Origin: a virus
Taxonomy: Duplodnaviria > Heunggongvirae > Uroviricota > Caudoviricetes
DNA length: 64,000 nt
Virus record (IMG/VR): IMGVR_UViG_2609460060_000003
Coordinates: 31,136-95,135 of that record
Strand: one strand, 5' to 3'
Below the pieces are notes generated by a model. That model was not told the DNA's origin and ran no database searches. It worked only from the letters and a program-made list of their open reading frames with translations. Shown in pieces: positions 19,327-19,722 of this stretch. Made by a program: the position numbers and the translations under genes. Position 1 is the first letter of the stretch; each line of letters opens with the position of its first letter.

Positions 19327-19414
19327 AGGGGAGTTAGTCCGTAGGGGTAGCGGGGTAGACTGTAAATCTACTGTCATTGCGACTCGGGTGGTTCGACTCC
19401 ATCACTCCCCACCA
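19327..19414 (+). tRNA. class II tRNA-like gene, anticodon GTA (Tyr-like)
   Basis: Acceptor GGGGAGT/ACTCCCC, anticodon stem-loop GTAGA-CTGTAAA-TCTAC, 15-nt variable arm, T-loop TTCGACT, CCA end; D-arm pairing non-canonical. Confidence 0.5.
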
Positions 19415-19418
19415 AATT

Positions 19419-19494
19419 GCCGGTTTAGCTCAGTTGGTAGAGCGCCTGCCTTGTAAGCAGGATGTCAGCGGTTCGAGTCCGTTAACCGGCACCA
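19419..19494 (+). tRNA. tRNA-Thr (anticodon TGT)
   Basis: Acceptor GCCGGTT/AACCGGC, anticodon loop CTTGTAA, T-loop TTCGAGT, CCA end. Confidence 0.85.
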
Positions 19495-19722
19495 ACACAA
19501 CAGGTAAGGGTATTTTGCGACGTCGGAGATCGCCGTGCTTGGCAGAGGGTTCGAATCCCTACGAAGTACCCTTACCGTTGTGATGAAGTGCAGCTCTTTG
19601 AAGCAACCAGAAGATAAGCATCTGGCTTCACAACATAAACCGCAGGAACGACCAATAAACGGTAGTCCGTATGGAGAACACCCCGTTGAGGAAGAGGCCT
19701 GGCCGGAACCGTAACCGGCACT

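Follow-up and report, generated by a model that had tools for sequence, protein, structure and literature searches.

Transfer RNA (tRNA) genes of lytic coliphages include textbook examples of anti-defense functions, in particular the tRNA-Tyr genes of T5 and T6. Phages are rescued by a tRNA-Tyr of the T5 family from retron-Eco7, a system in which the effector PtuAB destroys tRNA-Tyr (PMC11555353). Septu cuts tRNA-Tyr in its variable arm, and T6 escapes by making its own tRNA-Tyr in excess (PMC13096335). The T-even and T5-like genes lie in the tRNA-rich region of a lytic phage, under their own strong promoter or next to the SegB homing endonuclease. Here we describe a gene of the same lineage in a temperate phage-plasmid, where it lies in the leader of a repressor-controlled operon and is known from its sequence. 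It was found in a stretch of 64,000 nucleotides from a tailed phage (IMG/VR record IMGVR_UViG_2609460060_000003, positions 31,136 to 95,135; this whole stretch is referred to as the window), between the genes for tRNA-Asn and tRNA-Thr. The tRNA-Thr gene is followed by a long hairpin that belongs to a repeated family. We consider it probable that the locus combines a genuine tRNA-Tyr, whose likeliest role would be to replenish the tRNA pool under attack by host defenses, with hairpins that work at the RNA level in processing and stabilization and are not decayed tRNA genes.

The tRNA-Tyr gene and its coliphage lineage

The predicted fold and the comparisons described below identify positions 19328 to 19414 as a genuine tRNA-Tyr(GUA) gene of a coliphage tRNA-Tyr lineage. 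The fold proposed in the first-pass annotation of the window was borne out: the 7-bp acceptor stem (GGGGAGT/ACTCCCC), the anticodon loop CTGTAAA with anticodon GTA, the 15-nt variable region, the T-arm with the loop TTCGACT and the encoded CCA, preceded by A73, are all present. Both the anticodon stem and the T stem are 5 bp long, and every pair in them is standard in the Rfam alignment and in the minimum free energy (MFE) fold. The anticodon loop, CUGUAAA in the RNA, has 7 nt with U33, GUA and a purine at position 37, and is the same as that of E. coli tyrT. The variable region contains a 3-bp stem (GUC/GAC), which covaries in the copy of a Klebsiella phage. The identity set of tyrosyl-tRNA synthetase comprises A73, U35 and the bacterial G1-C72 pair; G1-C72, A73 and G34U35A36 are intact in the window gene.

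The D-arm had been described at first pass as poorly paired. Aligned to the Rfam model, the gene has a D stem of 4 bp (CCGU/GCGG) that closes the loop AGGGGUA, and U8, A14, G18G19 and A21 are present. The arm looked poor because of the register: a 4-nt connector (UAGU) precedes the D stem, instead of 2 nt, and the whole phage lineage has such a connector followed by a normal 4-bp D stem. What stands of the earlier remark is that the connector is atypical, although it is common to the T2, T6, T5-like and FelixO1-like copies and to all other phage members of the lineage.

ARAGORN called four tRNA genes in the whole window (Asn, Tyr, Thr and a CAU tRNA). The Rfam tRNA model (RF00005) matches the tRNA-Tyr gene with 41.9 bits, above the gathering threshold of 29 (E = 1.7e-5 for the whole 64-kb window), whereas its neighbors reach about 75 bits. 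The prokaryotic genome annotation pipeline (PGAP), which relies on tRNAscan-SE, labels identical copies as tRNA-Asn, tRNA-Tyr and tRNA-Thr in the RefSeq plasmid copies listed, and the GenBank record of phage vB_EcoM-Ro157c2YLVW carries the same annotation. We then compared seven tRNA-Tyr sequences, with T2, Vequintavirus, Klebsiella phage, T5-like, FelixO1-like and E. coli sequences included. In this alignment, 98.2% of the cloverleaf is paired and 12 of the 24 pairs are changed on both sides; none of 500 shuffles was as good, and slid controls paired over 45-58%. Together with the predictors, the PGAP labels, the identity nucleotides and the T5 and T6 relatives tested by others, this covariation lends support at the sequence level to the earlier suggestion of a functional extra tRNA.

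The window gene is most similar to the copy of an SSU5-like plasmid (97.7% identity), followed by those of a Vequintavirus (93.1%), T2L (90.8%) and T6 (89.7%). More distant are the T5-like (79.5%) and FelixO1-like (about 78%) genes, and E. coli tyrT is the most remote (65.5%). Membership in one lineage is also evident from the connector, the D stem, the T-loop TTCGACT and the variable arm, which the T2L, T6 and T5-like genes have in the same form as the window gene; the variable arm GTCATTGCGAC is in fact common to all phage members, whereas E. coli has GTCATCGAC. The resemblance to host tRNA-Tyr noted at first pass is therefore partial. E. coli tyrT, tyrV and tyrU share with the window gene the class II architecture, the 34-nt span from the 5' end to the anticodon, the CUGUAAA loop, G1-C72 and A73, but their D stem has 3 bp and closes a large loop, and the loop of their variable arm is 3 nt long. 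These differences, together with the low identity, mean that the window gene was not copied from the host. The tyrT sequence used here has a 100% identical match in all 5426 E. coli genomes.

A variable tRNA cassette in the leader of the ban operon

Over the tRNA region, the window is 100% identical to many 92-98-kb plasmids of E. coli and E. albertii (e.g., NZ_CP012491), and by these alignments it is a P1-like phage-plasmid, not reference P1 (NC_005856), the GenBank record from which the P1 annotation of the region was taken. Reference P1, with trnA, trnT and trnI, has the same locus, flanks and hairpins (H0, A, I1 and I5 below) and aligns to 89% of a 601-nt query from the region. It differs, however, at 8 positions of tRNA-Asn, and its tRNA-Asn and tRNA-Thr genes are 2 nt apart with tRNA-Tyr absent. 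The first-pass claim that the tRNA-Asn, tRNA-Thr and tRNA-Ile genes of P1 are all found here is thus right about the three genes and wrong in detail in taking the window for P1 itself. The features of the locus are as follows.

18563-18594, no strand: C1 repressor operator pair Op72ab/Obanab, an inverted repeat (ATATTGCTCTAATAAA/TTTATTAGTGTAATAT) matching Obanab, P1ban and P2ban as annotated in NC_005856
18964-19044, + strand: long hairpin H0 with the CAACAGGTAAGGGC motif; MFE -41.7 kcal/mol (18960-19049); a row in the stem alignment
19248-19322, + strand: tRNA-Asn(GUU); ARAGORN, Rfam 75.5 bits
19328-19414, + strand: tRNA-Tyr(GUA), class II, with encoded CCA; ARAGORN, Rfam 41.9 bits, PGAP on identical copies, covariation
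19419-19494, + strand: tRNA-Thr(UGU); ARAGORN, Rfam 74.9 bits
19496-19582, + strand: long hairpin A; fold z = -3.9, compensatory changes relative to the B, C and I5 types and to the distant orthologue L079
19546-19560, + strand: T-arm-like hairpin AGGG-TTCGAAT-CCCT within hairpin A; read from the sequence, same motif class enriched in family interiors
19719-19818, + strand: long hairpin I1, a diverged paralogue with GGGGTCATATCCC in its interior; inverted repeat with 23-nt arms, 91% complementary; MFE -49.0 (+) versus -42.1 (-); in the stem alignment
19998-20076, + strand: long hairpin I5, a paralogue with GGGTTCATATCCC in its interior, followed by the conserved tail GTTGCGGTGAATGC; inverted repeat, in the stem alignment
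20935-21010, + strand: tRNA-Ile(CAU), the last tRNA ahead of ban/dnaB; labelled Met by ARAGORN and tRNA-Ile by PGAP and the P1 record

The tRNA-Tyr gene is present in 269 of the 5426 complete E. coli genomes, always on plasmids, and in 244 PLSDB plasmids, while the adjacent leader region is found in 663 E. coli genomes. An SSU5-like phage-plasmid of 109 kb, with the order Asn-Tyr-Thr-Ser, has a tRNA-Asn identical to the one in the window, whereas the window tRNA-Thr is of the P1 type. N4-like phages carry Asn-Ser(tga)-Thr with short spacers, as in the window. In a sample of P1-like loci from IMG/VR, the locus is modular: H0 is followed by Asn or Arg(tct), then Tyr or nothing, then Thr, then hairpin A, B, A+B, C or none; next come I1, Ser(tga) or nothing, I5, tciABC and Ile(cat). 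These results suggest that tRNA-Tyr came to a subset of P1-like phage-plasmids within a mobile Asn-Tyr-Thr block, which is common to SSU5-like phage-plasmids and would be related to the Asn-Ser-Thr block of N4-like phages.

Other tRNA genes of the locus vary as well. In some P1-like plasmids (L004, positions 748-824; also L017 and L019), the first tRNA is Arg(UCU). Its acceptor, D and T stems are those of the window tRNA-Asn, but its anticodon arm and D-loop are not, which looks like an in-place change of identity by a swap of the anticodon arm. In pZ1323HEC0010-2 and the SSU5-like plasmid, a tRNA-Ser(UGA) gene stands in place of a window segment of about 90 nt (19910-19997), and most of that segment (19922-19997) occurs directly 3' of tRNA-Ile or tRNA-Gly in lambdoid prophages.

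The C1 operator pair and the ban promoters precede the tRNA cluster, which forms part of the ban operon's long untranslated leader. The operator pair overlaps these promoters, which form the sole recognized promoter region upstream of the tRNAs; the known, C1-controlled ban promoter is about 650 nt away from the cluster. This location suggests that tRNA-Tyr would be transcribed mainly on derepression of the prophage or on infection. There it may top up the supply while defense nucleases such as Septu and the PtuAB of retron-Eco7 destroy the tRNA-Tyr of the host. By analogy with the T5 and T6 genes, such replenishment is the specific role that we favor, with a confidence that falls a little short of even. 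Another agent directed against the tRNAs for Tyr and Asn is colicin E5 (PMC1635277).

Codon usage was examined in 41 long window open reading frames (ORFs; 14,677 codons). Tyr codons account for 3.09% (UAU 1.68, UAC 1.41) and are not elevated, while ACA accounts for 1.31%, AUA for 1.10%, AGA for 0.50% and UCA for 1.25%. In E. coli, Tyr codons are about 2.8%, ACA and UCA have roughly half of the window value, and AUA and AGA roughly half or less. Compensation for codon usage therefore fits the Thr, Ile, Arg and Ser tRNAs of such loci and not tRNA-Tyr, and the near-host share of Tyr codons leaves replenishment against tRNA-Tyr-cleaving defenses as the likeliest role, with matching of codon usage less likely. 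The main rival is plain supply, namely that tRNA-Tyr boosts phage translation during lytic growth by providing codons or amino acid, with no relation to defense. It is in line with the company that tRNA-Tyr keeps, since the gene travels with codon-compensating tRNAs, those for Thr(UGU), Ile(CAU), Arg(UCU) and Ser(UGA), whose codons are commoner in the window than in E. coli. E. coli, however, has a single tRNA-Tyr species encoded by about three gene copies in every genome, so that no rare codon would be served, and those relatives of the window gene that were studied experimentally act in counter-defense. We regard plain supply as rather doubtful.

Several points weigh against replenishment from the ban leader. 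A promoter scan near the tRNA cluster found no promoter-like site, and the ban promoter is separated from the tRNAs by a terminator-like hairpin (stem 18752-18774 on the + strand, with seven T extending to about 18782), so that the tRNAs and ban would need read-through. The T6 tRNA-Tyr is itself also cut by Septu and works by dosage only (PMC13096335). Loop mutations offer an escape route from tRNA-cleaving nucleases (PMC10264068), but the anticodon loop of the window gene is that of the host, and thus would give no escape from anticodon nucleases. Moreover, one tRNA-Tyr variant (L120) has a mismatch in the anticodon stem, and reference P1 does well without the gene. As a separate observation, the terminator-like site at 18752-18782 lies where the dicF-like region annotated in P1 ends.

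The absence of tRNA-Tyr from reference P1 and from most P1-like elements could also mean that the gene is a non-functional or dispensable hitch-hiker, recombined in with the Asn-Tyr-Thr block and persisting as these plasmids are young. The plasmid copies are nearly identical and thus say little about selection, and the connector ahead of the D stem is atypical. However, the architecture, connector included, is kept with compensatory changes across distant phage groups, the T5 and T6 members are functional, the identity elements and CCA are all intact, and the gene is found in two unrelated phage-plasmid families as well as in the 269 E. coli genomes. A hitch-hiker seems improbable.

The tRNA-Tyr itself is ordinary in that an identical sequence is already annotated in RefSeq. 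What is new is the setting, in which a tRNA of the counter-defense type forms a variable cassette in a repressor-controlled operon of widespread temperate phage-plasmids. This setting predicts that P1 variants differ in host range on hosts with Septu or retron-Eco7. Searches of the literature for tRNA-Tyr in P1-like plasmids or for RNA sequencing of the ban leader found nothing specific.

A family of long hairpins beside tRNA genes

Hairpin A begins 1 nt past the CCA of tRNA-Thr. Its helix of about 21 bp consists of an outer CACAAC/GTTGTG, a bulged A at 19502 and a 15-bp inner helix, in which GGTAAGGGTA (19503-19512) pairs with TACCCTTACC (19567-19576), and it encloses a 55-nt interior with AGGGTTCGAATCCCT at 19546-19560. 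The long hairpin is predicted to fold with a branched interior (MFE -33 kcal/mol, z = -3.9), and none of 200 shuffles was as stable. Of the earlier description of a 10-bp terminal helix and a T-loop, both elements were found, the helix being longer than claimed.

It had been proposed that 19500-19575 might be a pseudo-tRNA. ARAGORN is silent on hairpin A, RF00005 gives no match at E values up to 10, and there is no cloverleaf; the T-arm-like hairpin is the only part that resembles a tRNA. A decayed, functionless remnant of a former tRNA gene would account for the perfect T-loop sequence GGTTCGAATCC, and tRNA genes do turn over in this region, where some loci have tRNA-Ser and others lack it, and where Arg can take the place of Asn. 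On the other hand, the 21-bp flanking stem is conserved by compensatory change among the paralogues, and in L079, a distant type-A orthologue, the stem differs by four compensatory pairs while the interior, including AGGGTTCGAATCCCT, is kept. This is not what neutral decay predicts, and in addition to the blank tRNA models it makes a remnant quite unlikely. The other first-pass suggestion, a structured spacer, comes closer to the truth, except that hairpin A is not a one-off and is one member of a repeated and conserved family.

Four copies on the + strand (H0, A, I1 and I5) occur in the window, where they are confined to the ban leader, with H0 about 200 nt 5' of tRNA-Asn. Related plasmids carry further copies, namely type B (RCS47, Ro157), type C (L017) and a variant after tRNA-Ser. 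The family follows a common plan: an outer helix of 6-8 bp, a bulged A or a C/A mismatch, an inner helix of at least 14 bp and a tail GTTGYGRTGAA(K)GC. The interiors are variable and often contain T-arm-like hairpins. In an alignment of 18 stems, 94.6% of the cells of the 22-bp stem are paired and 12 of the 22 pairs are changed on both sides, whereas none of 500 shuffles was as good and slid controls paired over 35-51%. G-U cells outnumber A-C cells (29 versus 11), and the + strand of the hairpins folds 5-10 kcal/mol better than the - strand. Going by this G-U excess and the modeled folding, the + strand RNA is supported as the relevant molecule.

T-arm-like motifs, defined as a 4-bp stem with a TTCRANN loop, are present in 10 of the 67 distinct interiors listed and in none on the opposite strand, compared with 0.04 expected from shuffles, and their stems covary. 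One subfamily in IMG/VR (L145, L147, L203, L204 and L206) has the same closing stem and tail around a 95-nt interior of three hairpins, two of which have 7-nt TTCRAYY loops and the middle one of which shows four compensatory pairs. By eye, these long interiors are three hairpins and not an intact tRNA, a possibility that we had considered. Hairpin A was also examined as an intrinsic terminator and rejected, the stem being followed by GATGAAGTGCAG with no U run and the terminator scan making no call. Similarly, confinement of the motif to the ban leader within the 64-kb window speaks against a dispersed repeat of the replicon resembling miniature inverted-repeat transposable elements.

P1 records annotate two genes opposite these structures. 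The window has the same minus-strand ORFs, 19465-19842 (plp, "putative lipoprotein") and 19843-20034 (upl), which lie opposite hairpins A and I1 and the following segment, and the hairpins could in principle be by-products of protein coding on that strand. However, plp has TTG as its start codon and overlaps the tRNA-Thr gene. Its frame is scattered over three frames in L002 and displaced in L017, and L067 has lost nearly all of it by deletion. Neither Plp nor Upl has a Pfam match, and PGAP places no coding sequence here in the RefSeq E. coli records listed, of 692 matching records in 663 genomes. A coding origin is hardly credible on this evidence. Thus, plp and upl are probably not genes, which would make them a probable mis-annotation in the P1 reference, and the 730 nt between tRNA-Thr and tciA are very probably non-coding and built of the hairpin family. 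A sub-threshold Rfam match to STnc100 was observed at 20073-20188 on the + strand (43 bits versus a gathering threshold of 47, E = 1.4e-7), just 5' of the TerB-like tciA gene (20226-20660).

The family extends well beyond P1-like elements. Two pattern scans of IMG/VR matched at least 120 loci each. In a separate search, in which 167 records match the query overall, the 40-nt arm-plus-tail recurs with 97-100% identity in numerous records of unrelated phages. In P1-like, SSU5-like and N4-like clusters, the hairpins start 0-7 nt past the CCA of the last tRNA in a block. They are found after Thr and after Ser in the SSU5-like plasmid, and after Thr and around Pro in N4-like phages. Among the 69 distinct family members listed, 22 have a tRNA gene on the same strand within 500 nt, compared with a positional baseline of 7.7%, which means that the family is enriched near tRNA genes about 3-4 times. 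The same count weakens a strict role as a tRNA 3' trailer.

Window positions 19922-20085, which comprise the trailer and I5, have homologues immediately past the 3' end of two tRNA genes that differ in identity. One is the tRNA-Ile(cat) of a lambdoid prophage in a chromosome, where the I5-type homologue lies between Q and a holin gene; the other is the tRNA-Gly(tcc) of a Klebsiella phage. In a Klebsiella phage of 45.7 kb, the hairpin precedes a Ser-Arg-Met tRNA cluster by about 90 nt. In HK629, the hairpin is in the Q-S region with no tRNA, and in an Stx2 phage it is downstream of cI; the genes flanking the hairpins include those for Q antiterminators, a holin and a CI-like repressor. In two lambdoid loci (L153 and L136, the latter HK629), the family hairpin directly follows an intrinsic-terminator-like hairpin with a T run downstream of Q, which may be the late-operon terminator tR'.

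Candidate functions of the hairpins

Long stems between the units of polycistronic transcripts are familiar processing sites. RNase III stems include those of the T7 early RNA, the rRNA operons and the T4 tRNA precursor, and hairpin substrates of RNase P include the precursors of 4.5S RNA and of the P1/P7 C4 RNA. The hairpins studied here resemble these substrates in that an RNA duplex of about 22 bp, interrupted by a small bulge or mismatch, lies between transcript units beside tRNAs. A stem of this size, seen in the 18 family members, reaches the length that RNase III requires (about two turns, at least 20 bp). They differ in their sequence-conserved arms and branched T-arm-like interiors, which known RNase III sites need not have, and in lacking the RCCA that follows the stem of a good RNase P hairpin substrate. 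We infer that the hairpins act in RNA as processing and stabilizing structures. As double-stranded targets for RNase III or for cleavage of the RNase P/E type, they would set the tRNAs free and give the downstream mRNA stable ends. The repeated arms may at the same time offer homology for cassette exchange. The hairpins adjoin tRNA blocks and mark the breakpoints at which modules are gained and lost.

Several observations count against this explanation. The asymmetry between G-U and A-C cells is moderate, and H0 is a nearly perfect palindrome. Covariation gives no support to the T-arm fold within hairpin A, which competes with another pairing; the MFE fold of the P1 variant contains it, whereas the RNAalifold consensus does not. 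Most family members elsewhere, among the matches listed, have no tRNA nearby. Finally, the arms are conserved in sequence as well as in pairing, which structure alone leaves unexplained.

Conserved arms around unrelated interiors, which the processing model leaves unaccounted for, keep alive a role of the hairpins as DNA at cassette boundaries. They could be recombination boundaries or hairpin sites, like attC or mobile regulatory cassettes, at which tRNA or moron cassettes are swapped, with the RNA structure being incidental. Module variants of P1-like loci (A, B, A+B, C and the L067 deletion) all break at hairpins, the near-identity of the arm-plus-tail across very different phages suggests recent horizontal spread, and the typical lambdoid site is the slot downstream of Q. 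The hairpins also share with attC sites and T4-type PeSL cassettes imperfect inverted repeats, conserved ends (AAC...GTT, as in attC), variable centers and a position at the bounds of exchangeable cassettes. We nevertheless consider this role unlikely. The ends of hairpin A, ACACAAC...GTTGTGA, have one and two deviations from the attC cores RYYYAAC...GTTRRRY, and hairpin A was rejected as an integron attC site; no promoter element as in PeSL cassettes was found. No integron integrase is annotated in the examined stretches of related records, in which no search aimed at integrases was made, and no dedicated recombinase is evident. The evidence is instead of a strand-specific RNA type: G-U pairs exceed A-C, the + strand always folds better, T-arm-like motifs are strictly confined to one strand, interior hairpins covary, and the orientation is always that of the transcription unit.

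A more specific version of the RNA-level reading is possible but on balance not likely. The hairpins may form an undescribed, horizontally mobile class of phage RNA elements, in which a conserved 22-bp stem and 3' tail are combined with swappable T-arm-like interiors, perhaps with a specific function. Unrelated enterobacterial phages (P1-like, SSU5-like, lambdoid and others) would place these elements beside tRNA cassettes and downstream of Q, where they may direct the processing of tRNA and mRNA or serve as tRNA-elbow or T-arm decoys for tRNA-directed enzymes or defense nucleases. The family, found across many enterobacterial phages, coincides with the breakpoints of tRNA-cassette exchange and offers a concrete candidate for a new structured RNA.

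Searches of Rfam 15 at gathering and permissive thresholds returned no family for the hairpins, with matches to miRNA precursors, mascRNA and YrlA at chance level. YrlA, a Y RNA-like RNA, and mascRNA do resemble the hairpins in combining a long stem between the 5' and 3' ends with a T-arm-like module, but they match with 15.1 and 14.2 bits against gathering thresholds of 69 and 42.5, and the hairpins have no D-arm mimic or Rsr context. No description of the family was found in the searchable literature, with the P1 genome paper outside that search. The moron slot of lambdoid phages is also home to the anti-sRNAs AgvB and AsxR, which are 51-60 nt long and Hfq-bound (PMC4104026). As an identity for the hairpins these were set aside, since no link could be made.

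In phage T6, an unannotated stretch past the last tRNA, tRNA-Arg (L135, positions 1600-2190, - strand), holds a T-arm-like hairpin, CCGGGTTCAAGTCCCGG. In T4, the corresponding stretch is the site of the stable RNAs C and D, and a parallel between the T6 hairpin and the T-arm-bearing hairpins described above is possible. Elsewhere in the window, three Rfam families match above their gathering thresholds: a sok antitoxin RNA at 1833-2007 (114 bits), an isrK-like RNA at 47474-47551 (60.8 bits) and a C4 antisense RNA at 47576-47663 (75.9 bits).

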